Virus record (IMG/VR): IMGVR_UViG_2602041568_000006
Coordinates: 1-14,285 of that record
DNA from: a virus
Taxonomy: Duplodnaviria; Heunggongvirae; Uroviricota; Caudoviricetes
DNA: 14,285 bases
Strand: one strand, 5' to 3'
Shown: one piece after another, positions 1 to 14,285 of the stretch
Layout of the letters: each line of letters starts with the position of its first letter
Position numbering within the stretch: the stretch's first letter is position 1
Notes under the pieces: generated by a model
What the model saw: the letters and a program-made list of their open reading frames with translations, nothing else
Databases searched by the model: none
Told to the model about the DNA's origin: nothing
Translations under genes and position numbers: made by a program

Positions 1-552
1 ACGGGCTGCACTTTCCGGTAAGGCATCCGCCAGGTCATTACGAACCAGCCACCAGCACAGTTCCGGCATTGTCACAACGTGACTGTCATCAAAACCGAGA
101 TCCCGACGCACAACAGACAATACCCAGCGGGCACAGTTATCCGTTGCCATTGATTCCAGCCGTTCCGTGAACTGATCGCGCAACTGGTTATCGCAGTGCC
201 AGCACAGACGGATTGCGCCCGGCGCGTGCCGCATTGTGGTCATGTTCTCGCTGTGCCAGTCGGAATGAGGCCACTGACAGCCCTTTTCACGAAGTAACCA
301 GCTTTCAAGACATTCCACGCCACCAGCACGACGGATCACTGCCTCATTGCGGAACACGCCCCGAACGGCAGGATCATCCGCCAGCGGTTGTGATACCGCC
401 GGAACGGCACCACTGGCAAAAGATGAATAACGTTCCGGCTCAGGCTCCAACAGGACACGCCCCTGCATAAACAGGGGCATCAGCTCTGAACCTGGCCTGA
501 ACAATACGATCCCCATACGCGGGGCAATTTCAGGAGTCAGTAGTGCTCTCAC
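1..552 (-). CDS. Partial conserved prophage protein, Cys/His-rich (CQWPH...CWHCDNQ motif), possibly DUF968/YdfU-like; 3' end outside window
   Basis: Hand translation of the minus strand from 480 to 1 gives an open frame of at least 160 codons (MPLFMQGRVLLEPEPERYSS...LCWHCDNQLRDQF...). It is absent from the ORF track because it runs off the window. Start is ambiguous: GTG at 552 with a GAGG SD, or ATG at 516 or 480. Family assignment is from memory only. Confidence 0.45.
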   Translation of the reverse strand, partial: MRALLTPEIAPRMGIVLFRPGSELMPLFMQGRVLLEPEPERYSSFASGAVPAVSQPLADDPAVRGVFRNEAVIRRAGGVECLESWLLREKGCQWPHSDWHSENMTTMRHAPGAIRLCWHCDNQLRDQFTERLESMATDNCARWVLSVVRRDLGFDDSHVVTMPELCWWLVRNDLADALPESAAR

Positions 553-559
553 GGTCACC

Positions 560-1369
560 TCAATGAACGGTATCGAGCAGCTTTAACAGCTCAGGGAATC
601 GGGATTCGAAGAAATGCGGCTGCGTCTCGCGCGGATTTGCGGGACTGGTGATGTTCTTGCCGAACATGCAGCCTTTCGCTGTCAGCGACCAGAATTTTTT
701 GATGTTGTTAATCGCAGTGCGGCTGTATCGTTCACGTTGTTCAACGATCCCCAGCTTCGCCATCTGGTGATATGCCTGATTAGCTGTCAGGCGGATACCA
801 TACTGCTTCAGCAGTGCACTCAATGATAGCGTGGGGCGGCTTGAGCCATCAGGCGCGTCAGCAGGAGCATCAATGGCATAGCGCGGTGCCAGATTCGGTA
901 AGCCAACAGCCTCCTGGAGTTTCTGACAGGCACCAAGCACTGAAGAGTTAGACAGGTTTAACTCCCGGCGCATAAAGTCCAGCAGGATCACGCCAGCCTG
1001 CATCTTGTCAGCAGCCTGTCCGGATAATTTTTCCGGTGCGCTGGTTACCATATCGAAAGTACGGATCACCTTCAGATGGAATGACGGGCTGATCCACATT
1101 GCATAGGCATACACCAGTTCCTTGCAGACATACGTTCCCCGTTCATTTCCCCCATGAATCACACTCACCGGGTCAACACCCAAATTCTGGGTGTTGGTCA
1201 ATTCATGAACAAGCTCAACAGTTTGTTGGCTGGAAAGAAACTTTCCCGGCTCCTTGGTTCTGGCATTTGCACCAGATGCTACTGCTGCGCGATGCAGATC
1301 GTTCAGGCTGTAACGCCCATAAGCATCACGACGAACTTCAATACCATCAATGACCATCAGATTATTCAT
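560..1369 (-). CDS. KilA-N domain protein (antirepressor/Roi-like phage DNA-binding protein)
   Basis: 269-aa ORF with ATG start at 1369 preceded by AAGAGGAGAAA. The N-terminal ~100 aa fit the KilA-N pattern (YSLNDLHRAA...GGNERGTYVCKELVYAYAMWISPSFHLKVI). Confidence 0.7.
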   Translation of the reverse strand: MNNLMVIDGIEVRRDAYGRYSLNDLHRAAVASGANARTKEPGKFLSSQQTVELVHELTNTQNLGVDPVSVIHGGNERGTYVCKELVYAYAMWISPSFHLKVIRTFDMVTSAPEKLSGQAADKMQAGVILLDFMRRELNLSNSSVLGACQKLQEAVGLPNLAPRYAIDAPADAPDGSSRPTLSLSALLKQYGIRLTANQAYHQMAKLGIVEQRERYSRTAINNIKKFWSLTAKGCMFGKNITSPANPRETQPHFFESRFPELLKLLDTVH

Positions 1370-1388
1370 ACTTCGTTTCTCCTCTTAA

Positions 1389-1778
1389 TCAGGCGGCTGC
1401 ACCCGCCGTTTTCTCGTACTTACTGATAGTGATCTCGACCTTCCCTTCCGGGATAACCGGTCCCCACTCCACCAGCATTCTTTTCACCTGACTGTCGTCT
1501 TCCCACACACCCGCGTGGGTCAGGGCGTCAAACAGTGCCTTGTTATAGTTGTCCAGATCGCGGATCCGGTTATCCGGAGGAAACAACACGATCTCCACTG
1601 AAGCAGGTGCCGACGTTGGTTTTGGCAGACGACGTAACTGCTCAACTATTGCTGCGCACGCCGCGCTCTGAAATTTTCGCCCCGCCGCGCTTATCAGGCT
1701 CTTACCAGAAAATGCCCCTTTGTTGGGGTGTCGCCAGTACGTGTTCACGCTGGGCGGAAAAGGCAAGATCAGCTTCAT
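1389..1778 (-). CDS. rusA: Holliday-junction resolvase RusA (crossover junction endodeoxyribonuclease)
   Basis: 129-aa ORF; the N-terminal LPFPPSVNTYW motif, size and acidic residues (DLDN) are typical of RusA. ATGA overlap with the upstream gene at 1775-1778. Confidence 0.8.
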   Translation of the reverse strand: MKLILPFPPSVNTYWRHPNKGAFSGKSLISAAGRKFQSAACAAIVEQLRRLPKPTSAPASVEIVLFPPDNRIRDLDNYNKALFDALTHAGVWEDDSQVKRMLVEWGPVIPEGKVEITISKYEKTAGAAA

Positions 1779-2101
1779 ACTTTCAGGCCCCTCTCATGTA
1801 ACCAGTGGGTTGCACGCAGCCTTGCGTTTTCCTCACCGGCAAGCAGTGCGCGGATAATCCCGACCGCCTCGCTGTCGTCGTCCTTCACCGCGGTATGAAG
1901 CGTTATCCCCCGGGCCACTCCACGCTTTATCGTGATGACGCCTTTTTTCTCCAGTGCGCGAAGATGCTCCACCGCTGCATTCACTGAACGGTATCCCAGC
2001 ATGGTTGCCACCTCCTGATTGGTTGGCGGAAAGCCACGCTCTTTCTGATAAGAAATCAGCATATCCAGCACCTGCTGCTGGCATTGAGTTAATGTCGTCA
2101 T
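1775..2101 (-). CDS. LexA-like winged-helix DNA-binding protein lacking the S24 peptidase domain
   Basis: 108-aa ORF. Residues 5-68 align by eye with the E. coli LexA N-terminal domain (QQQVLDMLISY...PPT..EVA..LGYRS.NAA.EHLRALEKKGVI.I..G.ARGI.L). No Ser/Lys peptidase domain follows. ATGA overlaps at both ends. Confidence 0.7.
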   Translation of the reverse strand: MTTLTQCQQQVLDMLISYQKERGFPPTNQEVATMLGYRSVNAAVEHLRALEKKGVITIKRGVARGITLHTAVKDDDSEAVGIIRALLAGEENARLRATHWLHERGLKV

Positions 2102-2751
2102 GCCGCCATCTCCCTGACCAGTTTTTCCGCCTGCTGGCGAACCTGCGCCAGAAACGCCTCACCACATGCCTCAAGTTCATCGCGCCCGATGTAGCTGATT
2201 GCCGGTCCCTTCCAGGTCTTGTCAAAAACAGCAATAGCACCAGCGAAAAAAGCTCCTGTCGGTACCTGCTTCTCGTCTTTCGGGATAAACCAGACAGGCA
2301 GTTCAAAACCAATACGCCCGCGAATAAAAGCAATATGATCTGCATCTTCCGGCCACCACACTTCGCTGGTGGCAGCTTTGATCAGGAAAACATAGCGCCC
2401 GCCCTTATCACGCATGGCACTGGCATGTTTCATGATGTAACGCATGCCGGTGATGTATTGCCCCTCATGCTGACTGGCGCGGCTGTATGGAGGATTACCA
2501 AAGGCAGCACCTTTAAGCTCCGCAAGGCGTTCTGACCAGTCATGCGCCAGCGCGTTGTCTTCCGCCGTGTAATACGCGGCACATTTGGCGTTATCACCGT
2601 CAGTGAACAGATCCAGAACAAACGGGCCAAACAGGGTGTTAATTCCCCAGAAAATGTTGTCCGGCGTGCGCCACTGATCACCCACTTCCTTCAGTTCATG
2701 GGCTGGTTTGTTCCGCAGTTCCACCAGCTCCTGGCAATATTTATTACTCAT
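2098..2751 (-). CDS. Phage DNA N6-adenine methyltransferase (Dam-type, orphan)
   Basis: NPPY catalytic motif (AAFGNPPYSRA), typical of phage N-6-adenine methyltransferases. Start placed at ATG 2751 (MSNKYCQ...), which overlaps the upstream stop as TAATG; the track's longer 2784 start would overlap the upstream gene. Confidence 0.75.
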   Translation of the reverse strand: MSNKYCQELVELRNKPAHELKEVGDQWRTPDNIFWGINTLFGPFVLDLFTDGDNAKCAAYYTAEDNALAHDWSERLAELKGAAFGNPPYSRASQHEGQYITGMRYIMKHASAMRDKGGRYVFLIKAATSEVWWPEDADHIAFIRGRIGFELPVWFIPKDEKQVPTGAFFAGAIAVFDKTWKGPAISYIGRDELEACGEAFLAQVRQQAEKLVREMAA

Positions 2752-3245
2752 TAAGCCCCCACGTAATTCCCTGACAGATACCACTCTTCACCCGATGCAG
2801 CGCGCTTGCTGCTTTTCCGTAAACACTGCTCACGACGCACCAGAAAATTGTTTCGTTCTGGCTGGGAGTGGCTTTCACGGAATGCCGCCATCCACACCGT
2901 TGCAGCACGACGGTATAGGCCCCTGGACTCCAGTTCTTCCGCCTGGCGGGTCAGGCACAAAATCACCCGGGGATCGTTAGTGCCGACATAGAAATTGCGC
3001 ACAGGTCTGGTTTCACGAACTGGTTGTGGCTCCGGCTCCTGCGCTCTCTCAGTCAGGCGTGGGAAATGTCTGCGTGTATCTCCTTCACAACGGTGAGCCA
3101 CACGCCCACTCTGACGTAACTTGCTTGCTGACTGCAGAACGCGCTGCCGTGAGTAACCTGCAAAAGCATCCGCAATGTCTCCGGAAGTACACCCCGGATG
3201 GGCTTCAATGAATTTCTGAACTTCATTCAAAAGACTCATGATCAC
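2751..3245 (-). CDS. yfdN: YfdN-like prophage protein with N-terminal winged-helix-like region
   Basis: 164-aa ORF, the same length I recall for K-12 CPS-53 YfdN, and it sits next to the methyltransferase and replication-like gene as yfdM/yfdN/yfdO do. The 3245 start is GTG; ATG at 3239 with a GGGGG SD 6 nt upstream is an alternative. Symbol is recalled, not verified. Confidence 0.5.
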   Translation of the reverse strand: MIMSLLNEVQKFIEAHPGCTSGDIADAFAGYSRQRVLQSASKLRQSGRVAHRCEGDTRRHFPRLTERAQEPEPQPVRETRPVRNFYVGTNDPRVILCLTRQAEELESRGLYRRAATVWMAAFRESHSQPERNNFLVRREQCLRKSSKRAASGEEWYLSGNYVGA

Positions 3246-4060
3246 CCCCTGAATCCTGCCGGGATCTGGCTGTAATCCACGTTGTCGTAACTGGCTTTGA
3301 AGTACGGGTCCTCGCGTCTGGCTGCAGATACCGCAGGAACTTCCCAGGATTCTTCGAAATGACGATCCGGACCAAAGAACGTGACAGCCTGTTTCACAAA
3401 TTGTGTGCCGCTGTTACCCATCGCAGATACCCAGCACGAGTAGCGTTTCACACCTTCCAGCATGGTTTCGGGGTTTACCCCCTCATTCAAACGGGCTTTC
3501 CAGGCTTTGAAGGCTGCTGATTTTGAATTGCCACCAGCACGTTTGGGGTATGCCAGCCATGCCTGCTCAAACTCCGGAGAGTATTCCGGTCGGTTTGAAC
3601 GAACTCGCACAGACTCATCAGCAGATGCACCAACAGCTATTGGTTCATTGACTGGTTCTTTGACTGGTTCAAAAGAGTGACTGGTTCTGGGTGAATCTCC
3701 TGCACTACCCCCTGGTGCAACTCCTGCACTACCTGGTGAATTTGCTGCACCAGATAGTGAATTATTTGCACTACCCCCTAGTGAATCTCCTGCACCATCA
3801 AGATGAAGAAGATAGATATTACTTGAGTTACCTTTTTCACCTTTCCGGGTGACTTTTTTTACCAGCCCGGACTCACAGAGGGCCGCAATATGATTCATCA
3901 CAGAACGTTTGCTAATCTCGCACTGGTCAGCAATATGCTGGTAGCTGGGCCAGCACTCACCCTGATCGCTGGCATTATCAGCCAGCTTGATCAGAACCAG
4001 TTTTCGCAATGGATTACCCACTCGAATTTTCATCGCTTTAACCATCAGCTCCATACTCAT
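3242..4060 (-). CDS. Phage replication initiator / replisome organiser-like protein (N-terminal HTH, repeat-rich linker, C-terminal AWLAYPKR domain)
   Basis: 272-aa ORF with GGAGG SD 6 nt upstream of ATG 4060. The N-terminus (NPLRKLVLIKLADNASDQGECWPSYQHIADQCEISKRSVMNHIAAL) is HTH-like, followed by a G/S/A/P low-complexity linker and a C-terminal EFEQAWLAYPKRAGGNSKSAAFKAWKARL motif typical of phage replication proteins. Corresponds in position to the O-like yfdO remnant. Confidence 0.6.
   Translation of the reverse strand: MSMELMVKAMKIRVGNPLRKLVLIKLADNASDQGECWPSYQHIADQCEISKRSVMNHIAALCESGLVKKVTRKGEKGNSSNIYLLHLDGAGDSLGGSANNSLSGAANSPGSAGVAPGGSAGDSPRTSHSFEPVKEPVNEPIAVGASADESVRVRSNRPEYSPEFEQAWLAYPKRAGGNSKSAAFKAWKARLNEGVNPETMLEGVKRYSCWVSAMGNSGTQFVKQAVTFFGPDRHFEESWEVPAVSAARREDPYFKASYDNVDYSQIPAGFRG
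3648..3795. repeat. Mosaic of short direct repeats inside the replication-protein gene, encoding the low-complexity linker
   Basis: GACTGGTTC occurs three times (3649, 3662, 3679); GTGAATCTCCTGCAC twice (3691, 3781); CTCCTGCACTACC twice (3697, 3721). Confidence 0.55.
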
Positions 4061-4281
4061 GCTGCACCTCCGAGATGCTTCATGTTTTTTCCGGAGCGAA
4101 AGGCTATAAGCGGCATACTGACGCGGTAATTACGGCCCAGCGGTTCACAAATCACCTTCTGACATTCACGGTCAACCAGGCTAACACGTAGAACATGCCC
4201 TGCAGGCGTGGTGTACCACTGACCCGGACGAGGACAACGGAAAGTCTGATTGGTAAAACGTTTGAAAATATTCCGGATCAT
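4057..4281 (-). CDS. Hypothetical 74-aa basic protein, translationally coupled within the replication operon
   Basis: ATGA overlaps with the upstream gene (4278-4281) and downstream gene (4057-4060). No family recognised. Confidence 0.45.
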   Translation of the reverse strand: MIRNIFKRFTNQTFRCPRPGQWYTTPAGHVLRVSLVDRECQKVICEPLGRNYRVSMPLIAFRSGKNMKHLGGAA

Positions 4282-5426
4282 TTGCGCCCCCTTACCTCTG
4301 AAGGGTTCAGCGACAAATTTATGAGGCAGGCCAGCGCCGAAGCATCATTAATATAGTCATATAAGCTAACAGCCAGCGGAGATTCGGCTTTTGCCAACAT
4401 AGGATAAAGCTGCTGCAGCCAGACCTGATGAATTGATGAAATGTAGGAACAGAGAACGCTGGCGTTATGTGCAACGTCGCTCGGTACAGCGGGCTTTGAA
4501 AGCTGTTTCTCCATCTGGTTAAAGGCATTGATGTATGCCTCTTTGAACTGGGCAGCACGTTTACCCGTGAAACCCATAGCAAGAAACGCAAAGCCGTCGC
4601 GGGTTATTTGATAGCAAGGTAGTTTGCGGCCTGATGCGTCGATGTACTCACTGAGCTGGAAATTCAGCTCAGTAAATTCGGCAGAGCATTCAAGAGACGC
4701 AATTTTTTGAATGACGTTTTTGTGTTGTTTGCCGAAATAACTAGCAACAGCCAGAGAAGAAGTAACAACTTTGTCTGCAATAATGCAAAGTTCAGGTTGA
4801 ACTAAGGCAGGGATCGTAGCCATGATGGCAGCCTCCGTATGCAATGGATAACTTCCACCACCGGAAACGCCAATTTCGCTGGTGGTGAACTGAGCAGGGT
4901 TGGCGTAACCGGCGCATACGGAAACCGGCGCACCTTTCGGTGCCCCCACCCAGCCCACCATAATTTGGGTATAGCTGAGTTGTAGCAACAAAAAAGACGC
5001 TAACGCGCCAATTGTCGCCGTATGCAATTCCAGGACGCCAATCCCGGCACCCGCTTTATAAGGTGCCTGAACAGTGTAACGTCCCGGAATGGCAGAATCA
5101 ATGTGCTGGTGGTCCTTCACACTCAACAAAATCACGCCTGAATTTCCACAAAGGACTAAAGCACTCATGCGGGTAGTCTTTGCGAAGATAGATAACGCGC
5201 TGTGTTTCTGGCTCCCAACGAATAACATGAACATAAAGTCCTCTTCCGTCACGAAACCAGCGGTTAAGTTCCTGCACAACTCGCCCCCCACAGTCAGGTA
5301 AAGTTCTCTGTGGTTACTTACAGCCAGGTGATTTGGTAATCTGCATTCATGCCGTAACAACAGGTGTGCAGCGACACTGACCACCAGCTGTTGCGACAAA
5401 CGGTTATTTGCCGTTAAACTGTTCAT
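4278..5426 (-). CDS. Rha-family phage regulatory protein; Rha domain begins at internal Met (ATG 4823, GGAGG SD) after an uncharacterised ~200-codon in-frame N-terminal extension
   Basis: Continuous 382-codon ORF. Residues 202-290 (MATIPALVQPELCIIADKVVTSSLAVASYFGKQHKNVIQKI...EFTELNFQ...RDGFAFLAMGFTGKRAAQFKEAYINAFNQME) match the Phage_pRha pattern. A strong GGAGG lies 8 nt upstream of the internal ATG at 4823. The N-terminal 200 aa are A/G/S/L/V/H-rich and poorly charged. The 5426 ATG overlaps the upstream stop as ATGA. Confidence 0.5.
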   Translation of the reverse strand: MNSLTANNRLSQQLVVSVAAHLLLRHECRLPNHLAVSNHRELYLTVGGELCRNLTAGFVTEEDFMFMLFVGSQKHSALSIFAKTTRMSALVLCGNSGVILLSVKDHQHIDSAIPGRYTVQAPYKAGAGIGVLELHTATIGALASFLLLQLSYTQIMVGWVGAPKGAPVSVCAGYANPAQFTTSEIGVSGGGSYPLHTEAAIMATIPALVQPELCIIADKVVTSSLAVASYFGKQHKNVIQKIASLECSAEFTELNFQLSEYIDASGRKLPCYQITRDGFAFLAMGFTGKRAAQFKEAYINAFNQMEKQLSKPAVPSDVAHNASVLCSYISSIHQVWLQQLYPMLAKAESPLAVSLYDYINDASALACLINLSLNPSEVRGRK

Positions 5427-6058
5427 GCGTTAGTTTCTCCACAGACACAAAACGCCACGACGCCCGGAGCTGCACACTCGCGGGCGTTACTCTTTTCCGG
5501 CGCACAAAAAACACGAAATAACAGTGTTAAATGCTCCTGCCACTTCGCCATTACTTGGTAGCTGTTCTCTTCGATTTGCTCACGCTCAGCTTGGTCAATA
5601 ACTCCATCAGCAGTTGCCTTGCGTAAGTACTGGGAATGCTTGCCAATCCATTCTATTGACTCCATCAGCCGCTGATTAATGTCACCATTGTCAATATCAT
5701 CAATGACCACCAGCGGCACAAACACCCCATTACTACGACGGGCTATTGCATCCGTTACATGCCTGGTACCACTGGCATCCTGTAAAACCATGGCCCACTC
5801 AAGTGGAAAAATTTGATCCCCACCGCTACGCAGTCTGTTATGCAATTGATCTTTTGCTGGGGTGATATCATCAGATTTATACAAACCAAGAATTTCTGCT
5901 GCTTCCTCATAGCCATGAGGTAAATCAGCAATCGTTCTTCGTATTGCTGCCACCAGCCATGCTGGTTGCTTATCAACTTTCCATTCAGGTTCTTTACCCA
6001 CGTTTAAGCCCTCATATCTGTGGTTTCTGTAAATCGATTTATCCATTAGATTTTTCAT
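5423..6058 (-). CDS. CII-like / YdaT-family early regulatory protein (position-based assignment)
   Basis: ORF immediately downstream of the Cro-like gene. The track start at 6115 is GTG; in-frame ATGs at 6058 (MKNLMDKS) and 6046 are more plausible and overlap the 3' end of cro. Function is inferred from position in the operon, not from motifs. Confidence 0.45.
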   Translation of the reverse strand: MKNLMDKSIYRNHRYEGLNVGKEPEWKVDKQPAWLVAAIRRTIADLPHGYEEAAEILGLYKSDDITPAKDQLHNRLRSGGDQIFPLEWAMVLQDASGTRHVTDAIARRSNGVFVPLVVIDDIDNGDINQRLMESIEWIGKHSQYLRKATADGVIDQAEREQIEENSYQVMAKWQEHLTLLFRVFCAPEKSNARECAAPGVVAFCVCGETNA

Positions 6059-6239
6059 AAAGCTCAGGTTTAAATGGCAACCGTCCGCAAGTTCTATATG
6101 CAGCCTCTGCTGCACGTCCTTTTGGAATTAACTGGCCAGGACGGTTTCGCCACTGATAAACGGCTTCAGTTGTTATGCCGAAAAAAGCAGCAACTTTCTC
6201 AATGCTGCCGAAGTAGCTTTCGATATCGTCAGTCGTCAT
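6039..6239 (-). CDS. Cro-like HTH repressor (YdaS/Cro family)
   Basis: 66-aa ORF divergent from the cI-like gene. Contains an HTH-like segment (IEKVAAFFGITTEAVYQWRNR) and has a GGAGG(G) SD just upstream of ATG 6239. Confidence 0.7.
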   Translation of the reverse strand: MTTDDIESYFGSIEKVAAFFGITTEAVYQWRNRPGQLIPKGRAAEAAYRTCGRLPFKPELYEKSNG

Positions 6240-6250
6240 ATGCCCTCCAA

Positions 6251-6315
6251 ACTAAGTTTTATTAGATGTTAATTATCAATCTATCTTAGGTCAATAAAAA
6301 CTAAGATTACTTAGT
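6251..6315. promoter_or_regulatory. OR-like tripartite operator between cro and cI: 16-bp sites of the ACTAAG-N4-CTTAGT family
   Basis: Sites at 6251-6266 (ACTAAGTTTTATTAGA), 6275-6290 (degenerate, ATCAATCTATCTTAGG) and 6300-6315 (ACTAAGATTACTTAGT, perfect 6-bp arms), spaced about 24-25 bp centre to centre as in lambda OR1-3. Confidence 0.45.
6266..6294 (-). promoter_or_regulatory. Candidate pR-like sigma70 promoter for cro (TTGACC-N17-TAACAT on the minus strand)
   Basis: -35 TTGACC at 6294-6289 and -10 TAACAT at 6271-6266 with a 17-bp spacer; overlapped by the operator half-sites. Confidence 0.35.
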
Positions 6316-6336
6316 AATTAAAGAAATGGTGCTCCT

Positions 6337-6963
6337 ATGGAAACGGTTGGTCAGCGTATAAAAGCTCTGAGAAGAGTTACCAGAACGTCCCAGAAAGAAT
6401 TGGGTAAATTTTGTGGAGTAAGTGACGTTGCTGTGGGGTACTGGGAGAAAGACATCAATGTCCCTGGTGGGGAAGCACTTTCAAAATTAGCGAAGTTCTT
6501 CAATACGTCAATAGATTACATTCTTTATGGTGCGGAGTTTGAAGGCAAACTCGTCACAAACATGCGCAGAGTTCCTGTAATCTCGTGGGTTCAGGCTGGG
6601 CAGTTTACTGAGTGCAGGACAGCAGAAGTGTTTAGTGAAGTAGACAAGTGGGTAGATACATCATTAAAGATTGGTGATAACTCATTTGCATTGGAGGTTA
6701 AAGGCGACTCCATGACTAACCCTAACGGCCTCCCAACAATACCAGAAGGCGCAACAGTGATTGTAGATCCTGATGCAGAACCCCGGCATGGAAAAATAGT
6801 CATCGCTAGACTTGATGGAACAAACGAAGCCACAGTAAAAAAATTAGTTATCGATGGCCCTCAAAAGTTTTTAGTGCCATTAAATCCCCGGTACCCCAAC
6901 ATCCCGATCAATGGTAATTGCCTCATCATTGGTGTAGTCAAAGGAGTTCAATACGAACTCTAG
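6337..6963 (+). CDS. CI-like prophage repressor (N-terminal XRE HTH, C-terminal S24 LexA-like autopeptidase domain)
   Basis: 208-aa ORF. N-terminal HTH (QRIKALRRVTRTSQKELGKFCGVSDVAVGYWEK) and C-terminal S24 motifs (GDSMTNP...; VKKL Lys). No obvious SD, suggesting a leaderless or poorly translated mRNA as for lambda cI. Confidence 0.85.
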   Translation: METVGQRIKALRRVTRTSQKELGKFCGVSDVAVGYWEKDINVPGGEALSKLAKFFNTSIDYILYGAEFEGKLVTNMRRVPVISWVQAGQFTECRTAEVFSEVDKWVDTSLKIGDNSFALEVKGDSMTNPNGLPTIPEGATVIVDPDAEPRHGKIVIARLDGTNEATVKKLVIDGPQKFLVPLNPRYPNIPINGNCLIIGVVKGVQYEL

Positions 6964-6991
6964 CCCCCCTTTTCTCTAACCAAAACACCGA

Positions 6992-7045
6992 ACTAAGAAA
7001 AGTTTGGTGTTTTCTCTTGCCATCAAAACTAAGTTAAGTTAGATT
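6992..7045 (+). promoter_or_regulatory. Operator-like sites downstream of cI (ACTAAGAAAAGTTTGG, ACTAAGTTAAGTTAGA) with a possible TTGCCA-N17-TAGATT promoter: candidate OL/pL
   Basis: Sites at 6992-7007 and 7028-7043 share the ACTAAG half-site with the OR sites. Possible -35 TTGCCA at 7017-7022 and -10 TAGATT at 7040-7045. Confidence 0.3.
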
Positions 7046-7117
7046 TTATATCAAAGATAACGAACAGGCAGGACGCCCACGAAGTAGCCGCCGGTGGCGG
7101 GATGATTCGTTAGCAAC

Positions 7118-7154
7118 AAAAAAGCGCCCTACAGGACGCTTTGCTCTTTAAAAA
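7118..7154. terminator. Hairpin with minus-strand U-tract (terminator for the 7308-7802 gene), abutting a boxA-like TGCTCTTTAAAAA on the plus strand
   Basis: Stem 7124-7129 / 7134-7139 with loop TACA. On the minus strand it forms 6 bp including one G-U and is followed by UUUUUU (complement of 7118-7123). On the plus strand the stem has a C-A mismatch and is followed by TTGCTCTTTAAAAA (7141-7154). Confidence 0.5.
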
Positions 7155-7307
7155 TCAGTAACCCTCACTTTGGGCCTGGACCTGGTGGCCTGGGACGAGG
7201 AGGAATATGAAAAGGCTCTATTGGTCGACTCATTATCCAATCCTATTATGTCTCATTTCTTCGGTTTCGGTGGTTTCGGCTTCGGAGGTACATGTCCGTG
7301 AACTGGA

Positions 7308-7802
7308 TTATGCTTGTTGGTCATCATTAATATCCGTTAGTTCATTCTCTAGAGGTAGATCTCCCGCACACCAAGCTATAAATTTTTCTTTGGTTGTTAA
7401 ATCGTACTTAGTTGGAACACCAGCAAAAATACAGGCCCGAATGAAAGCCGCTCGTTCAAGTGATTTCCATGGATTACTATCAGTATCTTGGATTTTTAAA
7501 TACCTAGCTTGCAACTGATCTTCAGGAAGGGTATCAGACTCAATCAGCAGTCTTTTGTAATGCCTCGCTTGCTCTTTAGACATTCCAGCCTCCTGGCCAA
7601 ACTGATAGACCAACTGAAGAACCGAAAGTACGGCAACAAACAAACCGAAAATAAATAAATTACTGTACGGGGCGAAAACTGAAAAACCGAGAACGATTAA
7701 CATCAACGTTATTAATTTATCAATGCGAGTTAACAACGTGTAATTCATCTTCTCCAATACATAAGAGTAGTGAACATAAAATTTATAATCGTCTCTGGTC
7801 AT
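7308..7802 (-). CDS. AT-rich membrane protein with an N-terminal two-helix hairpin and soluble acidic C-terminal domain; candidate superinfection-exclusion/abortive-infection moron
   Basis: 164-aa ORF with two predicted TM helices (LITLMLIVLGFSVFAPY, LFIFGLFVAVLSVLQLVYQF). AT-rich third codon positions, own orientation opposite to the flanking genes, and a downstream minus-strand terminator at 7118-7139. Overlaps the antisense plus ORF 7207-7518. Confidence 0.5.
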   Translation of the reverse strand: MTRDDYKFYVHYSYVLEKMNYTLLTRIDKLITLMLIVLGFSVFAPYSNLFIFGLFVAVLSVLQLVYQFGQEAGMSKEQARHYKRLLIESDTLPEDQLQARYLKIQDTDSNPWKSLERAAFIRACIFAGVPTKYDLTTKEKFIAWCAGDLPLENELTDINDDQQA

Positions 7803-7901
7803 ATTAGTCTCAGTTTTCCTTGGGTGGTTTTGGAGGAACTGGAGGCTTTTGTCTTAACGGCACATGCCTCTCCTCATACTTATCTACACATAGATCCATA
7901 T

Positions 7902-7958
7902 AAATCCTTATCGTTGTTGGGGAGGGTTACATAATAACCAAATCCTTGTTGTTGGGGA
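7902..7958. repeat. Direct repeat AAATCCTT(ATC)GTTGTTGGGGA, two copies about 38 bp apart, in the non-coding region upstream of the early-left genes
   Basis: Copies at 7902-7923 and 7940-7958, identical apart from a 3-nt insertion. Confidence 0.5.
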
Positions 7959-8185
7959 ATAACCAGGTCCACCTCGCCTGATGTGGCTAAAAGCAGGCAC
8001 ATAACAGCTAAGTATTTTCAACCAGAGAGAATCCTTAGCGTTGTGGTGAATGCGGCTCAGCGCACGCGGGTTAAGGTTGAGGCTGACAGTCGACCTTCTG
8101 TGGATACCCACCCGCCTGGTGTGCAACCTTCGCCAGGCACCGGGAGGCACCCGGCACCACAACTTTATGCTGTGTGTAGTCCTGG

Positions 8186-8231
8186 CGGTACCAGTTTGTA
8201 CCCTTGCTTCCGGCTGGTACCGTCCTTTTTA
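8186..8231 (+). terminator. Terminator-like hairpin (9-bp stem CGGTACCAG / CTGGTACCG, then TCCTTTTT) within the GC-rich leader upstream of the yfdP-like gene
   Basis: Perfect inverted repeat 8186-8194 / 8214-8222 with a 19-nt loop, followed by a T-run at 8225-8230. Other GC hairpins lie at 8074-8096 and 8140-8154. Confidence 0.35.
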
Positions 8232-8367
8232 CAAAACAGAGAAGAGCATCACCGGACGACGGGCTCATAACCCAATCCATCCGGGCGGCTGCCACCGCAG
8301 GTGTTCTTCTCTGTTTTGTGGAGAAACTAATCGGCCTTGCAGGGTCGATATGATGAGGAGCAGCAAA

Positions 8368-8730
8368 ATGGCTAGCGAACGCAGTACTGATGTGCAGGCA
8401 TTTATCGGGGAGCTGGACGGCGGCGTATTTGAAACCAAAATCGGCGCAGTTCTCAGTGAAGTCGCTTCCGGTGTGATGAACACGAAAACCAAAGGTAAGG
8501 TCTCACTCAACCTGGAAATCGAACCATTTGATGAGAACCGTGTGAAAATCAAACACAAACTCTCATATGTTCGCCCGACTAACCGTGGGAAAATTTCCGA
8601 AGAAGACACCACCGAAACGCCGATGTATGTCAATCGCGGTGGTCGCCTGACTATTCTGCAGGAAGACCAGGGACAATTACTGACTCTTGCCGGTGAGCCT
8701 GACGGAAAACTCCGCGCAGCAGGTCATTAA
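8368..8730 (+). CDS. yfdP: YfdP-like early-left prophage protein
   Basis: ATG at 8368 preceded by GAGGAG 7 nt upstream gives 120 aa, the length I recall for K-12 YfdP, and it is followed by the yfdQ/R/S-like genes in the same order. The upstream in-frame extension of the track ORF lies in a GC-rich structured region. Confidence 0.55.
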   Translation: MASERSTDVQAFIGELDGGVFETKIGAVLSEVASGVMNTKTKGKVSLNLEIEPFDENRVKIKHKLSYVRPTNRGKISEEDTTETPMYVNRGGRLTILQEDQGQLLTLAGEPDGKLRAAGH

Positions 8731-8795
8731 TATCGTTCTTAATTAACTGATTATTTATCTCATCACTGAATATCTTAATATAGTGAGGACTTATT

Positions 8796-9620
8796 ATGTC
8801 TCAGAACTTAGACGCAACCGCAATTAATCAAATCCATGCCCTTATTTCTGCTCAGGGTGTTAATGACATTATCAGTAAGATTGGTGCCGATGCTGTGGCA
8901 TTGCCTGAGAATTTCCGCATTCATGATCTGGAAAAATTTAATTTAAATCGCTTCCGTTTCCGTGGTGCACTTTCCACTGCCAGCATCGATGACTTTACCC
9001 GTTATTCTAAAGATCTTGCAGATGAAGGCACCCGCTGCTTTATCGATGCCGATAATATGCGAGCCGTCAGTGTGCTTAACCTGGGTACTATTGATGAACC
9101 AGGTCACGCAGATAACACCGCCACTCTCAAACTGAAAAAGACAGCACCGTTCTCTGCTCTGTTGTCTGTTAATGGCGAGCGTAACTCCCAGAAGTCACTG
9201 GCAGAATGGATTGAAGACTGGGCCGACTACCTTGTGGGCTTTGATGCTAATGGTGACGCCATTCAGGCAACCAAAGCGGCTGCGGCGATCCGTAAAATCA
9301 CAATTGAAGCGAACCAGACCGCTGATTTTGAAGACAATGACTTCAGCGGCAAACGCTCCCTGATGGAGTCTGTCGAAGCGAAGACCAAAGACATTATGCC
9401 AGTGGCATTTGAATTTAAATGCGTTCCGTTTGAAGGTCTGAAAGAACGTCCGTTTAAATTACGCCTCAGAATTATCACTGGCGATCGTCCTGTACTGGTT
9501 CTGCGCATTATTCAGCTGGAGGCGGTGCAGGAAGAAATGGCTAACGAATTTCGTGATCTGCTTGTTGAGAAATTCAAGGACAGCAAAGTAGAAACCTTTA
9601 TTGGTACTTTCACCGCCTGA
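8796..9620 (+). CDS. yfdQ: YfdQ-like protein (DUF2303-type prophage protein)
   Basis: 274-aa ORF with a GAGG SD 7 nt upstream of ATG 8796; length and position match my recollection of YfdQ in CPS-53. Confidence 0.6.
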
Positions 9621-9747
9621 TTTCATTACTGCAAATGCCCCTGCGGGGGCATTTATGGAAACGTAATTTACTCAATAATCGCCGGATGGTGAGGGATTCT
9701 TTTTACCAGAATTCAGCGCGGTGCAGCGCATATACGTGGAGAACAAA

Positions 9748-10284
9748 ATGTCATTTATCAAAACTTTTTCTGGGAAGCATTTTTATTATGACAGGATAAA
9801 TAAAGACGACATCGATATTAACGATATCGCGGTTTCCCTTTCAAATATCTGTCGCTTTGCCGGTCATCTTTCGCACTTCTACAGCGTCGCCCAACATGCG
9901 GTTCTTTGCAGCCAGCTGGTGCCGCAGGAATTTGCTTTTGAAGCGTTAATGCATGATGCAACAGAAGCGTATTGCCAGGACATTCCCGCACCACTGAAAC
10001 GCCTTCTTCCTGACTATAAACGGATGGAAGAAAAAATAGACGCCGTAATCCGTGAGAAATACGGGTTACCACCGGTTATGAGTACGCCCGTGAAATATGC
10101 CGATCTCATCATGCTGGCAACCGAACGCCGCGATCTCGGGCTTGATGATGGCTCTTTCTGGCCTGTACTGGAAGGTATCCCGGCAACAGAGATGTTCAAC
10201 GTGATTCCACTGGCACCAGGCCATGCCTACGGGATGTTTATGGAACGCTTTAACGAATTATCGGAGTTACGCAAATGCGCATGA
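9748..10284 (+). CDS. yfdR: HD-domain phosphohydrolase, YfdR-like 5'-deoxynucleotidase
   Basis: HD-domain motifs (SVAQHAV...ALMHDATEAY). ATG at 9748 with GGAG SD gives 178 aa, the length recalled for YfdR. The track start at 9721 is GTG. Confidence 0.7.
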   Translation: MSFIKTFSGKHFYYDRINKDDIDINDIAVSLSNICRFAGHLSHFYSVAQHAVLCSQLVPQEFAFEALMHDATEAYCQDIPAPLKRLLPDYKRMEEKIDAVIREKYGLPPVMSTPVKYADLIMLATERRDLGLDDGSFWPVLEGIPATEMFNVIPLAPGHAYGMFMERFNELSELRKCA

Positions 10285-10637
10285 ATGTTTTCGAAATGGA
10301 AGGATTTCTTCGCGGGAAATGTGTACCGCGAGATCTGAAAGTGAATGAAACGGATGCTGAATACCTGGTGCGTAAATTTGATGCGCTTGAAGCTAAATGT
10401 GCAGCACTGGAAAACAAAGTAATACCAGTGTCAGCTGAACTGCCGCCAGCGAATGAAAGTGTTCTGTTATTTGATGCTAATGGAGAAGGCTGGCTGATTG
10501 GCTGGCGTTCTCTCTGGTATACATGGGGGCAAAAAGAAACCGGAGAATGGCAGTGGACATTTCAGGTCGGGGACCTTGAAAACGTCAACATCACTCACTG
10601 GGCAGTAATGCCAAAAGCACCGGAGGCTGGAGCATAA
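10275..10637 (+). CDS. yfdS: YfdS-like protein
   Basis: 120-aa ORF overlapping the end of the HD-domain gene; TAATG overlap with the next gene. Length and order match my recollection of YfdS. Confidence 0.5.
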   Translation: MRMNVFEMEGFLRGKCVPRDLKVNETDAEYLVRKFDALEAKCAALENKVIPVSAELPPANESVLLFDANGEGWLIGWRSLWYTWGQKETGEWQWTFQVGDLENVNITHWAVMPKAPEAGA

Positions 10638-11446
10638 TGACCACATTTACCGATAAAGAACTGATTAAAGAAATCAAAGAACGAATCAGCAGCATGGACG
10701 TGCGAGACAATGTTGAGCGCCGTGCTTATGAAATTGCTCTGGCATCGCTGGAAGAGGATCCGGTGGCATGGCTGCATTCAGACAATGGCTTAGGTATTCC
10801 GGCAATAACCAGGAGTAAAAACATTGCTGACAGTTGGTTATCAAAGGGCTGGTATGTTCAGCCGCTATATATAGCTAAGCCAGTGCCGGTGGTGCCAGAT
10901 GCTCGTCCGTCTTTAAATAATGGCATAGTCGGTTTTGATGAAGGCTGGAACGCCTGCCGCGCTGCCATGCTCTATGGTGCCGTACCTGCAAGCCAGGCTT
11001 ACAAGTTGCCACAAACGCAGTTTAAACAGGTTGCTGACCTCTACGAAATGCAATTTGATGACGGTCGCACTTGTGCCTTTCACACTGATGCGCAAAAGGC
11101 TGTGCAATGGCTTCAGGCGTGCGACGGAAACAGGGTTCAGGAATACGTTAAGCTGGAACGATTGCAGAACGCACTGTCTGGCAACTCTCCGGTAACTCCG
11201 GATGGTTGGGTTATGGTGCCGAAGAGACTAACAGCCGAGAACGGCGCTAAGGGGGCGCTATCCGGTGAATTTTCAGAAACTACGTTTATAAGCTGCCTGG
11301 AATGCTTTGGCGATGATGATTGCGATACCTGTGACGGGAGCGGACGTATTGAAATTAAAGTGCCAGTCACGTGGTCGACCATAAAATCTATCTGGGATAA
11401 AGGTATCGAGTATTTTGCAGCAAAACCATCACAAGAGGTGAAGTGA
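10637..11446 (+). CDS. Hypothetical early-left protein with C-terminal DnaJ-type CxxCxGxG zinc-finger-like motif
   Basis: 269-aa ORF with the motif CLECFGDDDCDTCDGSG near the C-terminus. Translationally coupled at both ends. Possibly the full-length counterpart of the shorter K-12 yfdT. Confidence 0.55.
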   Translation: MTTFTDKELIKEIKERISSMDVRDNVERRAYEIALASLEEDPVAWLHSDNGLGIPAITRSKNIADSWLSKGWYVQPLYIAKPVPVVPDARPSLNNGIVGFDEGWNACRAAMLYGAVPASQAYKLPQTQFKQVADLYEMQFDDGRTCAFHTDAQKAVQWLQACDGNRVQEYVKLERLQNALSGNSPVTPDGWVMVPKRLTAENGAKGALSGEFSETTFISCLECFGDDDCDTCDGSGRIEIKVPVTWSTIKSIWDKGIEYFAAKPSQEVK

Positions 11447-12018
11447 TGAACAACTTAATGATCGACCTTGAGACGATGGGGAAAAATAAGGATGCACCGA
11501 TCGTTTCCATTGGCGCGGTGTTCTTCACTCCAGAAACCGGAGACATCGGACAAGAATTCTATACGGTTGTTAGCCTGGAAAGTGCTATGGGGCAAGGAGC
11601 TACACCTGACGGCGATACCATCCTGTGGTGGTTGAAACAAAGCCCTGAAGCACGAGCTGCAATCTGTATTGATGATACTTTGTCGATCAGCGATGCTCTC
11701 TCAGAACTAAATCATTTCATTAACCGGCACGCAGACAATACGAAATATTTAAAAGTCTGGGGTAACGGAGCCACCTTCGACAACGTAATTTTACGTGGAG
11801 CTTATGAGCGAGCAGGACAAATCTGCCCGTGGGCATACTGGAATGACCACGATGTACGCACGATCGTTACGCTTGGGCGTTCCATCGGATTCGACCCCAA
11901 AATGGACATGCCTTTCGATGGCGAACGGCACAACGCCCTGGCTGATGCCCGTCATCAGGCAAAATATGTTTCCGCTATCTGGCAGAAATTAATTCCTGCC
12001 ACCAGCACAGAATTATGA
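11446..12018 (+). CDS. DEDDh-family 3'-5' exonuclease (DnaQ-like fold)
   Basis: Exo I motif (MIDLETMG) and a C-terminal H-x4-D motif (HNALADARHQ). Start placed at ATG 11446 (AAGAGG SD 7 nt upstream), overlapping the upstream TGA; the track start at 11443 is GTG. Confidence 0.7.
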   Translation: MNNLMIDLETMGKNKDAPIVSIGAVFFTPETGDIGQEFYTVVSLESAMGQGATPDGDTILWWLKQSPEARAAICIDDTLSISDALSELNHFINRHADNTKYLKVWGNGATFDNVILRGAYERAGQICPWAYWNDHDVRTIVTLGRSIGFDPKMDMPFDGERHNALADARHQAKYVSAIWQKLIPATSTEL

Positions 12019-12054
12019 TTTTCCCGGGTGCAGCCGGTTTTGATGGAGAAAATT

Positions 12055-12336
12055 ATGAACACCTTGTTTTTACTGATGGCTGAATTCAATACCCCTAACA
12101 TTGAACTCTCAGCAGTTAGCCAAAAGTACTTTGGCATGAGTCCAGCCACGGCAGAAGCAAAAGCAAACGCTTGTAAGTTGCCCGTTCCAACATATCGCAT
12201 CGGCACATCACAAAAAGCAAAACGTTGCATCAATATTCAGGATCTTGCGGAATACATAGACAAAAGACGAGAAGAAGGACGTATCGAGTGGGAACAGGTC
12301 AGAACAAGCAAACAGAAGGGCAAAGAACATCACTAA
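12055..12336 (+). CDS. PrtN-family / excisionase-like small DNA-binding protein
   Basis: Start at ATG 12055 with a GGAG SD 6 nt upstream gives a 93-aa product (MNTLFLLMAEF...KLPVPTYRIGTSQKAKRCINIQDLAEYIDKRREEG) resembling the pyocin-activator PrtN / phage excisionase family. The track ORF begins at GTG 12028. Ends at the terminator. Confidence 0.55.
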   Translation: MNTLFLLMAEFNTPNIELSAVSQKYFGMSPATAEAKANACKLPVPTYRIGTSQKAKRCINIQDLAEYIDKRREEGRIEWEQVRTSKQKGKEHH

Positions 12337-12368
12337 ATAAAAAACCCGCCTAAAGGCGGGTTTTCAAA
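12336..12368. terminator. Bidirectional rho-independent terminator between the convergent early-left operon and the accessory cassette
   Basis: A-run 12336-12344, stem CCCGCC 12345-12350, loop TAAA, stem GGCGGG 12355-12360, then TTTT 12361-12364. The U-tract is stronger when read on the minus strand. Confidence 0.7.
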
Positions 12369-12383
12369 AAGCACCAGCTATGA

Positions 12384-12557
12384 TCATGCTGCTTTGCGAC
12401 GACGAAGCTTACCCTGCTGCTCTTTACCAGAGACAGTAGCGTGAGTGAACGCATTATGAGCAGCCTTCATCAGAACTTCAACAGCAGCACCCATACCTGC
12501 GAATGCTTTCATTGTGTCGAACTTAACCTGTGGCTTGGTTGCTTTTTGATCTTCCAT
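12384..12557 (-). CDS. Unlisted 57-aa ORF (MEDQKATKPQVKFDTMKAFAGMGAAVEVLMKAAHNAFTHATVSGKEQQGKLRRRKAA), third gene of the accessory operon
   Basis: Hand translation. ATG at 12557-12555 is preceded by AGGAG 6 nt upstream; TGA at 12386-12384 is followed directly by the terminator. Below the ORF-track length cutoff. Predicted helical with a basic C-terminal tail. Confidence 0.4.
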   Translation of the reverse strand: MEDQKATKPQVKFDTMKAFAGMGAAVEVLMKAAHNAFTHATVSGKEQQGKLRRRKAA

Positions 12558-12596
12558 AGAAAACTCCTGAAGTTATACCGAAACAATTCCTGTTGT

Positions 12597-13016
12597 TTAC
12601 TCATCATCAATAGATGATACGCAATATTTATTTTTAAATTTAAGGTTCTTTGGCGTAACTTCATCAGAGATATCAAAACCGTCCAGAATTCTATTGAATG
12701 TAGCTTCTGGCATATCATCATGAACAGAAATCTCACCCGATCGCTGCTTTCTAACCATGTTATCCACTCGCCAAATTATAGCTTCAGCGTAAACAACATA
12801 ACTTGGATGCTTGATAAAGCGATGATCACCAGAATTCAAGATGCAAGACGGATCGTGGGGGACACCATCCTTGATACTAGAAATATTAACAACTAAAACA
12901 CAATAACAATCGTTAACGGGGTAATAAACAGGATCATTACAAATCACATGAAGATGATTGCATGGCCCAGTTGGGGCAAGCACAGTTCCTTTCCTGTATG
13001 GCTGATAATCCGTCAT
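12597..13016 (-). CDS. 139-aa Cys/His-rich protein of unrecognised family, translationally coupled to the Panacea-like gene; candidate toxin/effector
   Basis: ATGA overlap with the upstream gene at 13013-13016, AT-rich codon usage, and no motif I recognise (GPCNHLHVICNDPVYYPVNDCYC...). The toxin role is inferred only from gene order (socAB-like). Confidence 0.5.
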   Translation of the reverse strand: MTDYQPYRKGTVLAPTGPCNHLHVICNDPVYYPVNDCYCVLVVNISSIKDGVPHDPSCILNSGDHRFIKHPSYVVYAEAIIWRVDNMVRKQRSGEISVHDDMPEATFNRILDGFDISDEVTPKNLKFKNKYCVSSIDDE

Positions 13017-13585
13017 GATAATTGCAAAGAAAATTCCTTAAGTTTCTGAGATTCTTCCATTTTGCCAATTATGCGATTAGCCTCATCCTCGCTTTTACCC
13101 TCACTGATCAGCATTTCTTTCAGGTCTATAGGCTTACGAGAATTGCCAGGATCGTGCCACTCTGGACAAACGCTTTCTAAATGCGTCATATTTGCGAGAT
13201 CAAATCGGTTCATATGCCCATACCGAGAATAGATTTCATCTAAAATCCGGATATCTGCACGACTCAATTCATCAAAGACCTCGTCTGCATCCATTTCCCT
13301 CGGATCTGAACGCAACGATACATTATGCCCGTTCGTCTCTATCAAGTTGTACCAGTAGTCACCAATGCCTTCAGCCTTACCGCGAATCAAGTTCAGCGTA
13401 TTCGACATGACTGGTCCAAATTTCATAGAGTAAAGGCTATCTTCGCCGATCATCCTGCCATGCTTCAAAATCGACTGGCGGTTAGACAGATAGAGCAACT
13501 TCATCAATTTCAGATATGCCATGCGCCCACCTCGCTTAAGAAGTAGGTATGCAGCCATTTGAGCTACTTTTTCTTCGCAAAACAT
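13013..13585 (-). CDS. Panacea-domain (DUF4065, SocA/GepA-like) protein; candidate antitoxin
   Basis: 190-aa ORF with GAGG SD 9 nt upstream of ATG 13585. Matches the Panacea pattern as I recall it (AAYLLLKRGG...LKLMKLLYLSNRQSILKHGRMIGEDSLYSMKFGPVMSNTL) and has the C-terminal THLESVCPEW-type motif. Confidence 0.6.
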   Translation of the reverse strand: MFCEEKVAQMAAYLLLKRGGRMAYLKLMKLLYLSNRQSILKHGRMIGEDSLYSMKFGPVMSNTLNLIRGKAEGIGDYWYNLIETNGHNVSLRSDPREMDADEVFDELSRADIRILDEIYSRYGHMNRFDLANMTHLESVCPEWHDPGNSRKPIDLKEMLISEGKSEDEANRIIGKMEESQKLKEFSLQLS

Positions 13586-14285
13586 ATAAGAAACCTCAAA
13601 GATAGTGAACTTTATAATTATTCTCGATACTTCATGGGTTGCTTCATCACCAACACGAGCTTCTTATGGTGTGCCCACTTGGGCCTAAGCAACCAGTTAC
13701 CTCGTTTGTCAAGTTTATAGCTGGCTTTAACCATGGTCAATTGAAGTGATGAGCAAATGATGCTTTCTAAGAATAACAGGTTCCCAATAGGCTCCCACAA
13801 AGTGTATAACTAGTTGTTTTTCAAAAACGGTACATCCTATCGAGCATTGGTGCAACGCTAAACCGACCACTCCAGTGAACGTCAGTTTTTTCAGGCATTG
13901 CGCTGGTTTGGTTGATTTTTTGCATTTCAGAATTACCGTGCATTTTCAAATGTAGAGATTATTTTATCGATATATCATGGGGTTATGTTATTCAGCATCA
14001 CTATTCAGGAGGCTCAATAGCGGGGTACTATACCATAACAACAGGAAGCGCCTGTCTCATTGCAAAAGAAAATTGAGATCCTCTCAAGGCATGAAGCTCT
14101 CACGAAGTGATGGAAATAATCTTATTAGCCGTTAACTTTGTTAAGGCCAATGATAAACAATCCAGGTTCGACGATAAATAAAAAATCACACATTAAACTC
14201 TGGTGATATATCTCCCTGCTAATAGCATTGATAGAGAAAAAAGGGTAATGACTCCAACTTATTGATAGTGTTTTATGTTCAGATA

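Follow-up and report, generated by a model that had tools for sequence, protein, structure and literature searches.

The DNA examined here is a window of 14,285 nucleotides (nt), positions 1 to 14,285 of the IMG/VR virus record IMGVR_UViG_2602041568_000006 (Caudoviricetes); it represents the part of a lambdoid prophage that holds the immunity and early genes. In its segment at 12336-13720, three open reading frames (ORFs) on the minus strand, of 190, 139, and 57 amino acids (aa), converge on a hairpin that ends the plus-strand early-left operon. The first two ORFs, called panA and panT below, very probably form a type II toxin-antitoxin (TA) operon, PanA-PanT (PanAT). The pair occupies 12571-13778 and is accessory cargo of a dusA-integrated lambdoid prophage, placed between its excisionase gene (xis) and its attachment (att) site. 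The features of the segment are as follows.

13013..13585, minus strand: panA, gene of the predicted 190-aa antitoxin (PF13274 match, AlphaFold2 (AF2) model, RefSeq name "Panacea domain-containing protein").
12597..13016, minus strand: panT, gene of the predicted 139-aa toxin with a MazF/Kid/CcdB-like fold, cluster T6.
12384..12557, minus strand: 57-aa ORF, phrog_2741, function unknown, 39 nt 3' of panT.
12340..12365: intrinsic terminator, bidirectional, a hairpin with flanking A/T runs, common to the early-left (xis) operon and the panA-panT-57-aa unit.
12571..13778, minus strand: swappable PanAT module, consisting of panA, panT, and 193 bp upstream (promoter region); its ends are the limits of the DNA replaced by other cargo.
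13712..13740, minus strand: promoter-like site TTGACC-17-TAAACT 5' of panA, a consensus match only.

An original prediction, made from the letters of the window, had described this segment as an AT-rich cassette of three genes, and each feature on which it was built is present, from the three ORFs with their ATGA overlap and Shine-Dalgarno sites to the terminator and the drop in G+C. The stop codon of panA and the start codon of panT overlap in the ATGA at 13013-13016, as read from the sequence, so that the 190-aa gene is tightly coupled to its partner as had been proposed. Shine-Dalgarno sites are found 10 nt 5' of the panA start (GAGG) and 7 nt 5' of the start of the 57-aa ORF (AGGAG); one was looked for upstream of the panT start and none was seen, which, together with the overlap, fits translational coupling of panT to panA. 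The stem of the terminator is 11 bp long, 6 of the pairs being G-C, and closes a loop of 4 nt; a T run accompanies it, and the folding energy is -19.4 kcal/mol (z = -3.4). Because an A run lies on its other side, the terminator could also be used by the convergent plus-strand xis operon. The G+C content is 0.417 across 12336-13720 compared with 0.487 in the remaining phage. This is due to panT (0.383) and panA (0.431), the 57-aa ORF being at the backbone level (0.477), and the swappable module as a whole has a G+C of 0.406. Judged by their sequence matches, the three ORFs are true genes and not chance ORFs, since the 190-aa product scores 70.9 bits against PF13274, homologues of the 139-aa product form 62 close and about 2,700 distant clusters, and the 57-aa product matches phrog_2741 (E = 1e-33).

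The 190-aa protein is identified by its domain match as a Panacea-domain antitoxin, and here the Pfam search bears out the original prediction. The match to Panacea (PF13274; E = 2.2e-19, the 70.9 bits standing against a gathering cut-off of 25.7) extends over residues 27-137 and covers 109 of the 113 profile positions. In the AF2 model (predicted local distance difference test score 92.9) a compact domain is followed by two C-terminal helices at residues 155-161 and 166-189. Furthermore, PF13274 is present in all of 120 PanA homologues among the matches listed.

The linkage between panA and panT was measured in 32 loci from a one-genome-per-species collection; the genome scan used PanT alignment A1, not the diverse alignment A2. 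A PanA homologue lies immediately 5' of panT and on the same strand in 30/30 loci with sufficient upstream DNA, mostly with a gap of -4 nt, and these loci span the Gamma-, Beta-, and Alphaproteobacteria. The identities of PanA and of PanT to the window proteins are correlated (r = 0.94). Kurata et al. recognized partners by the FlaGs criterion, i.e., a partner within 100 nt in a two-gene architecture conserved across species, and panA stands in this relationship to panT. The pair recurs in several settings unrelated to one another: in an integrase island of Shewanella, in the tail regions of Proteus and Chimaeribacter prophages, beside int in Yersinia phage YeP1, and in Salmonella prophages. 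Thus, panA and panT are an obligate, co-inherited, mobile gene pair. Within E. coli, the module is found in 207 of 5,426 complete genomes (approximately 4%), in one copy each and always in the chromosome, and PanT homologues are found in 9 of 50,697 phage records. Shiga-toxin-associated and avian pathogenic E. coli (APEC) phages are among the carriers (Lys8385Vzw, SKA5).

Individual loci show variation on this arrangement. In contigs of Salmonella enterica (L046-L049), a PanA that is 88% identical is followed by a 144-aa PanT adjoining xis, and in one of them (L049) no more than a 58-aa remnant of the toxin gene is left beside an intact panA, which suggests toxin decay. Escherichia phage PhiR5_2 (PV340546.1, our record H84) encodes a PanA homologue of 40% identity at 57243-57731 and no detectable homologue of the window PanT, and Panacea proteins may therefore swap partners among coliphages. 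Neither a PanT nor a PanA homologue of the window was found in phage Emek.

Comparison with related phages delimits the DNA that is exchanged. The end of a prophage in E. coli EH53 aligns to the window only at 12000-12570 and 13779-14243, and the interval between the aligned blocks is taken up by a 177-aa gene that is unrelated. The order in phage mEp460 is int, 177-aa gene, 57-aa gene, xis. The 177-aa protein matches phrog_4350, function unknown (E = 2e-103; L008 3455-3988 in EH53, L044 1771-2304 in mEp460), and has no Pfam or NCBIfam match. The slot of PanAT is thus filled by another gene in relatives, which marks the interval between xis and attP as a cargo-exchange site. The PanAT pair is variable, moron-like accessory cargo and not part of the core, consistent with its occurrence in a small part of E. 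coli genomes, and on this point the original prediction of a variable insertion was correct.

The 57-aa ORF, which had been counted as the third gene of the cassette, is part of the phage backbone and lies outside the PanAT module. Its product is matched end to end by phrog_2741, and the gene is present without PanAT in mEp460 and EH53. A tblastn search found none in the other PanAT-bearing loci (30 or more, outside these E. coli phages), and in Salmonella dusA prophages the PanAT pair directly adjoins xis and the 57-aa gene is missing. The breakpoint at 12570/12571 separates it from panT. Besides its presence without the pair and its absence from other PanAT loci, the G+C of 0.477, compared with 0.406 in the module, argues for this placement. 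In the window, the 57-aa gene is probably co-transcribed with panA and panT, because it starts 39 nt downstream of panT with no terminator between.

The 139-aa protein has no match in Pfam, NCBIfam, PADLOC, or PDB sequences, whether searched as a single sequence or as a profile, and the profile of its family finds no MazF among PDB sequences. Weak matches to ICMT, DapC, hemocyanin, and IgG were rejected as chance matches. Structural modeling, on the other hand, assigns PanT a predicted MazF/Kid/CcdB-like fold, the SH3-like barrel characteristic of MazF and CcdB, to which two additional C-terminal helices are appended; its best fold matches are all endoribonucleases. The family is large. Close relatives form 62 clusters by word-indexed search, in Enterobacterales, Vibrio, and Shewanella, and a profile search of 1.84 billion representatives returned 2,704 at E ≤ 1e-3 and 929 at E ≤ 1e-10, counted as 50%-identity representatives. 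The distant homologues are nearly all 125-150 aa long. A separate caution applies to a 90%-identity protein collection, in which PanA and PanT fall into one cluster. This probably reflects read-through or fused ORF calls (e.g., a 232-aa member), a database artefact that calls for care when members are counted.

The residues conserved in the wide PanT family are H21 (invariant), L22, D55, C58, H65, F67, S72, Y76, G113, and S117, and in the close family H23 and C26 are conserved too. These conserved His and Cys residues account for the earlier impression of a "Cys/His protein." The start of the gene also deserves comment. RefSeq calls a "hypothetical protein" of 128 aa (NZ_AP027829.1, WP_014640052.1, L009 3298-3684), whose start is 11 codons downstream of the ATGA start and leaves a 29-nt gap after panA. 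The N-terminal PYRKGT motif is conserved across genera, with K9 and T11 at 90% or more and G10 invariant, which supports the 139-aa start at the ATGA overlap.

The original prediction could not place the 139-aa partner in any toxin family and suggested a possible new PanT type, and this does not stand. Kurata et al. 2022 (PNAS, PMC8832971) surveyed the neighborhoods of DUF4065, named the domain Panacea, and sorted its partners into 88 toxin clusters. Cluster T6, mentioned approximately 87 times in their Dataset S1, includes entries from Yersiniaceae bacterium 2016Iso4 (GCF_002858715.1, A|T, gap -1), Pantoea septica LMG 5345 (gap -4), and Proteus vulgaris (gap -4) (PMC8832971). All three recur in our set: a protein 56% identical to the window PanT (P0308) comes from Chimaeribacter coloradensis 2016-Iso4 (GCA_002858715.1) with a gap of -1, a homologue lies in Pantoea septica LMG 5345 (L018) with a gap of -4, and Proteus homologues with a gap of -4 match the Proteus entry. 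By these sequence correspondences, the window PanT family is identified with PanT cluster T6; the assignment follows from three shared assemblies or strains with equal gaps, that is, from cluster co-membership and not from direct alignment with the PanT of Pseudomonas moraviensis. The window pair is a further member of the published PanAT family and not a new toxin type.

The T6 pair of P. moraviensis (PanA WP_083354365.1, PanT WP_083201923.1) is one of nine validated PanAT systems; its PanT is toxic, is rescued by its own PanA, and is pulled down with it (PMC8832971). The same toxin specifically inhibits 35S-Met incorporation, and HHpred finds it EndoA/PemK/MazF-like (PMC8832971). Beyond the toxin family, the two pairs have in common the antitoxin architecture (Panacea with no N-terminal domain), the antitoxin-first order, and an overlap of -4 or -1 nt. 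The PanA N-terminus in the window, MFCEEKVAQ, resembles the corrected N-terminus MIFSEQKVAQ of P. moraviensis PanA. They differ in setting, since the window pair sits in a dusA-integrating lambdoid prophage of E. coli whereas the P. moraviensis pair was scored "NotPhage." The closest Pseudomonas PanT sequence encountered is that of phage Sirocco, with 47% identity to the window PanT.

The surroundings of the module place it at the junction between prophage and host. The features concerned are listed here.

12028..12336, plus strand: PrtN/excisionase-like gene (xis), last of the early-left operon (PF11112; phrog_1300 excisionase).
11443..12018, plus strand: 3'-5' exonuclease gene of the early-left operon.
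6337..6963, plus strand: cI-type S24 repressor gene.
Minus strand of the window: cro, cII-like gene, Ash/Rha antirepressor gene, replication genes, dam, rusA, and KilA-N gene.
13840..13946: att homology at the prophage-host junction, common to free phage Lys8385Vzw and the uninterrupted 5' end of E. coli dusA.
13827..13949, minus strand: truncated dusA' stub of 40 codons (translation MHGNSEMQKINQTSAMPEKTDVHWSGRFSVAPMLD...), in the same direction as panA.

Window positions 13840-14243 are the 5' end of dusA and its upstream region and are found in almost every E. coli genome. Prophage-free chromosomes align to the window from 13840 onward and the free phage Lys8385Vzw aligns up to 13946. Positions 13840-13946 (107 bp) are thus the att homology, at the xis-proximal junction of a dusA prophage, and in Lys8385Vzw the same cassette lies between the excisionase-like gene and the integrase gene. 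The dusA' stub is annotated as an incomplete tRNA-dihydrouridine synthase in related genome records, and dusA-targeting integrases have been described as an integration class (PMC4482086). A terminator was sought between the stub and panA and none was found; since the stub points at the module, the host dusA promoter could read into it. No operator-like palindrome was found 5' of panA, the one palindrome there being 9 nt long and overlapping the -35-like hexamer. RNA genes and tRNAs were searched for in and near the module and none were found, which makes a type III or RNA antitoxin unlikely.

Other observations in the window concern parts of the prophage away from the module. Rfam matches at gathering level to the C4 antisense RNA (RF01695, 80.7 bits) and isrK (RF01394, 61.2 bits) lie at 4878-4965 and 4990-5066, respectively, both on the minus strand, inside a program-called 382-aa ORF (4278..5426) whose product has Ash and Rha domains. 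This region looks like an isrK-C4-antirepressor immunity module of the P1/P7/Gifsy type, and the 5' part of the ORF probably represents RNA genes and not coding sequence. A 164-aa ORF at 7308-7802 on the minus strand (phrog_6315, unknown function, G+C 0.39) has no Pfam match; it lies, in the opposite orientation, between cI and the early-left operon and is possibly a second moron, at the position of lambda rexAB. Beside dusA, in a DUF2713 (yjbL/M-like) region, an IS1 element is inserted, whose end (inverted repeat GGTAATGACTCCAAC...) occupies 14244-14285; the window stops inside this element.

Taken as a TA operon, the module rests on a domain identity, a modeled fold, an obligate linkage, a family membership, and a variable-cargo status that are established by the analysis above, and its mode of action would be as follows. 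Transcription of panA and panT would run leftward along the minus strand and start in the DNA upstream of them, with read-through from the host dusA promoter also possible; translation of the two genes would be coupled through the ATGA overlap. PanA, whose Panacea domain stands alone except for a helical extension at the C-terminus, would bind PanT directly and hold it inactive. Free PanT would arrest growth by blocking protein synthesis; its toxicity, its neutralization by PanA, and translation as its target are all drawn from the P. moraviensis homologue. From the fold, the action of PanT would most probably be RNA cleavage. In a lysogen, the pair may act in abortive infection or superinfection defense, with the toxin released by an incoming phage, or as an addiction module that penalizes prophage loss. 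The former role would agree with the proposal that Panacea is a phage sensor (PMC10440598).

Several observations weigh against parts of this reading. The MazF fold also includes CcdB, which is a gyrase poison. No match to Pfam PemK/MazF (PF02452) was obtained for the window PanT at E ≤ 1 or for 50 family members at E ≤ 0.1, and hhalign of the PanT profile with the sequences of E. coli MazF and of Kid gave insignificant probabilities of 0.3 and 0.2. The conserved H21, D55, C58, H65, S72, and Y76 differ from the catalytic Arg/Thr of MazF, and no Arg is conserved across the PanT family; RNase chemistry is therefore an assumption for PanT. The promoter of panA is a consensus match only, and such sites are no commoner in the region than in shuffled sequences. 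With regard to defense, which the original prediction had offered as a possible function of the partner, none of the three proteins matched a PADLOC-DB 2.0 model at E ≤ 1, and no paper was found that links the E. coli PanAT pair to defense or tests the pair. Lastly, several PanA partners are non-toxic in E. coli, including those of E. coli MOD1 and Salmonella phage Emek (PMC8832971). The latter two belong to a different cluster, T1 (PMC8832971), and Emek has neither this PanT nor this PanA, so that their lack of toxicity is not directly applicable here.

Among the alternatives, the possibility deserves some credit that PanAT serves mainly for addiction or stabilization: on prophage loss, labile PanA would decay, PanT would kill or arrest the cured cell, and the element would be kept in dusA. 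The pair adjoins recombination genes and the att site here and is similarly placed in Yersinia phage YeP1, the Shewanella island, and Salmonella prophages, and TA modules on integrative elements are generally known as a stabilizing device (discussed in PMC8832971). Against this, the present data do not separate addiction from defense, related phages thrive with other cargo in the same slot, and the Salmonella prophage in which PanT has decayed to 58 aa and PanA is kept would be unexpected if the pair were strictly required. It is unlikely, though worth stating, that PanT uses the MazF/CcdB scaffold for a non-RNase activity, either as a metal-dependent or Cys/His enzyme acting on a translation component or as a CcdB-like stoichiometric inhibitor. 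The best fold matches argue otherwise, being all endoribonucleases, and what the tested T6 toxin specifically inhibits is translation, as with MazF, and not replication, which CcdB would inhibit. A local alignment, itself non-significant and at most a hint, sets S46/S47 of PanT opposite T52/T53 of MazF and H21 opposite H28, beside R29. A more specific version would make T6 PanT a distinct enzyme on the MazF/CcdB scaffold, with H21, D55, C58, and H65 as a metal or Cys-His-Asp center that inactivates a translation component, and the E. coli copy an abortive-infection system with Panacea as phage sensor; we regard this combination as doubtful.

Two further readings follow from the way in which the cassette was first described, and both are highly improbable. 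In one, the system would have three genes and the 57-aa protein would be a regulator, chaperone, or second antitoxin. Its ORF is on the same strand with its own Shine-Dalgarno site, 39 nt downstream, no terminator intervenes before 12365, and accessory third genes are allowed by Kurata et al. (PMC8832971). This reading is largely refuted by the distribution of the 57-aa gene: mEp460 and EH53 have it alongside the unrelated 177-aa gene, and beyond these E. coli phages none of the 30 or more PanAT loci, Salmonella included, contains it; its backbone-like G+C and the breakpoint between it and panT point the same way. The other, hardly more credible, is a type VI system on the pattern of SocAB, whose antitoxin would be a ClpXP adaptor delivering the toxin for degradation. 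The gene order of socAB is indeed shared, as the original prediction had noted, as is the Panacea domain, and some databases name PanA homologues "SocA family protein." The identity with SocA nevertheless fails, for PanA scores 14.4 bits against the NCBIfam SocA equivalog (NF047745), whose cut-off is 190. Moreover, the partner is MazF-like, SocB falls in a separate cluster, T10, and the tested T6 pair behaves as a type II system in forming a stable complex (PMC8832971). The SocAB reading was rejected on the failed SocA model, the MazF-like partner, and the complex formation of T6.

The preferred reading, a type II PanA-PanT operon, can be set beside better-known systems. As in MazEF and Kid-Kis (PemIK), a small toxin is encoded 3' of its antitoxin, and the related T6 toxin blocks translation. 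The window PanT differs in lacking a PF02452 match, in conserving His/Asp/Cys/His and no Arg, and in carrying its two extra C-terminal helices; the antitoxins of MazEF and Kid-Kis are AbrB- or ribbon-helix-helix-type with a disordered tail, whereas the window antitoxin is a globular Panacea protein. In SocAB of Caulobacter (type VI), a Panacea antitoxin gene likewise precedes the toxin gene. SocB blocks the DnaN clamp. The toxins are unrelated and ClpXP delivery is not expected for the window pair, whose PanA falls outside the SocA model. CapRel-SJ46 (PMC9712102) is alike in that a prophage-borne, Panacea-type antitoxin element controls a translation-blocking toxin, a likeness that supports Panacea as a phage sensor (PMC10440598). 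In CapRel, antitoxin and toxin are fused in one polypeptide, the toxin being a toxSAS (tRNA pyrophosphokinase), and defense and its trigger have been demonstrated (PMC9712102); the window pair consists of two proteins with a predicted MazF-fold toxin.

A protein that RefSeq lists as hypothetical, with a start that removes 11 conserved residues, can now be named as a T6-type PanT toxin with a predicted MazF fold. Current concepts are left unchanged, given that published work already covers the family, its toxicity, and its association with Panacea, and only the catalytic chemistry and the prophage role of PanAT could yield something new. For these questions, the PanAT pair offers a native and tractable setting in E. 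coli and its lambdoid prophages, in which what Panacea senses and the chemistry of the T6 toxin may be studied. The slot between xis and attP of dusA-integrating phages is likewise a place to seek more accessory and defense genes.

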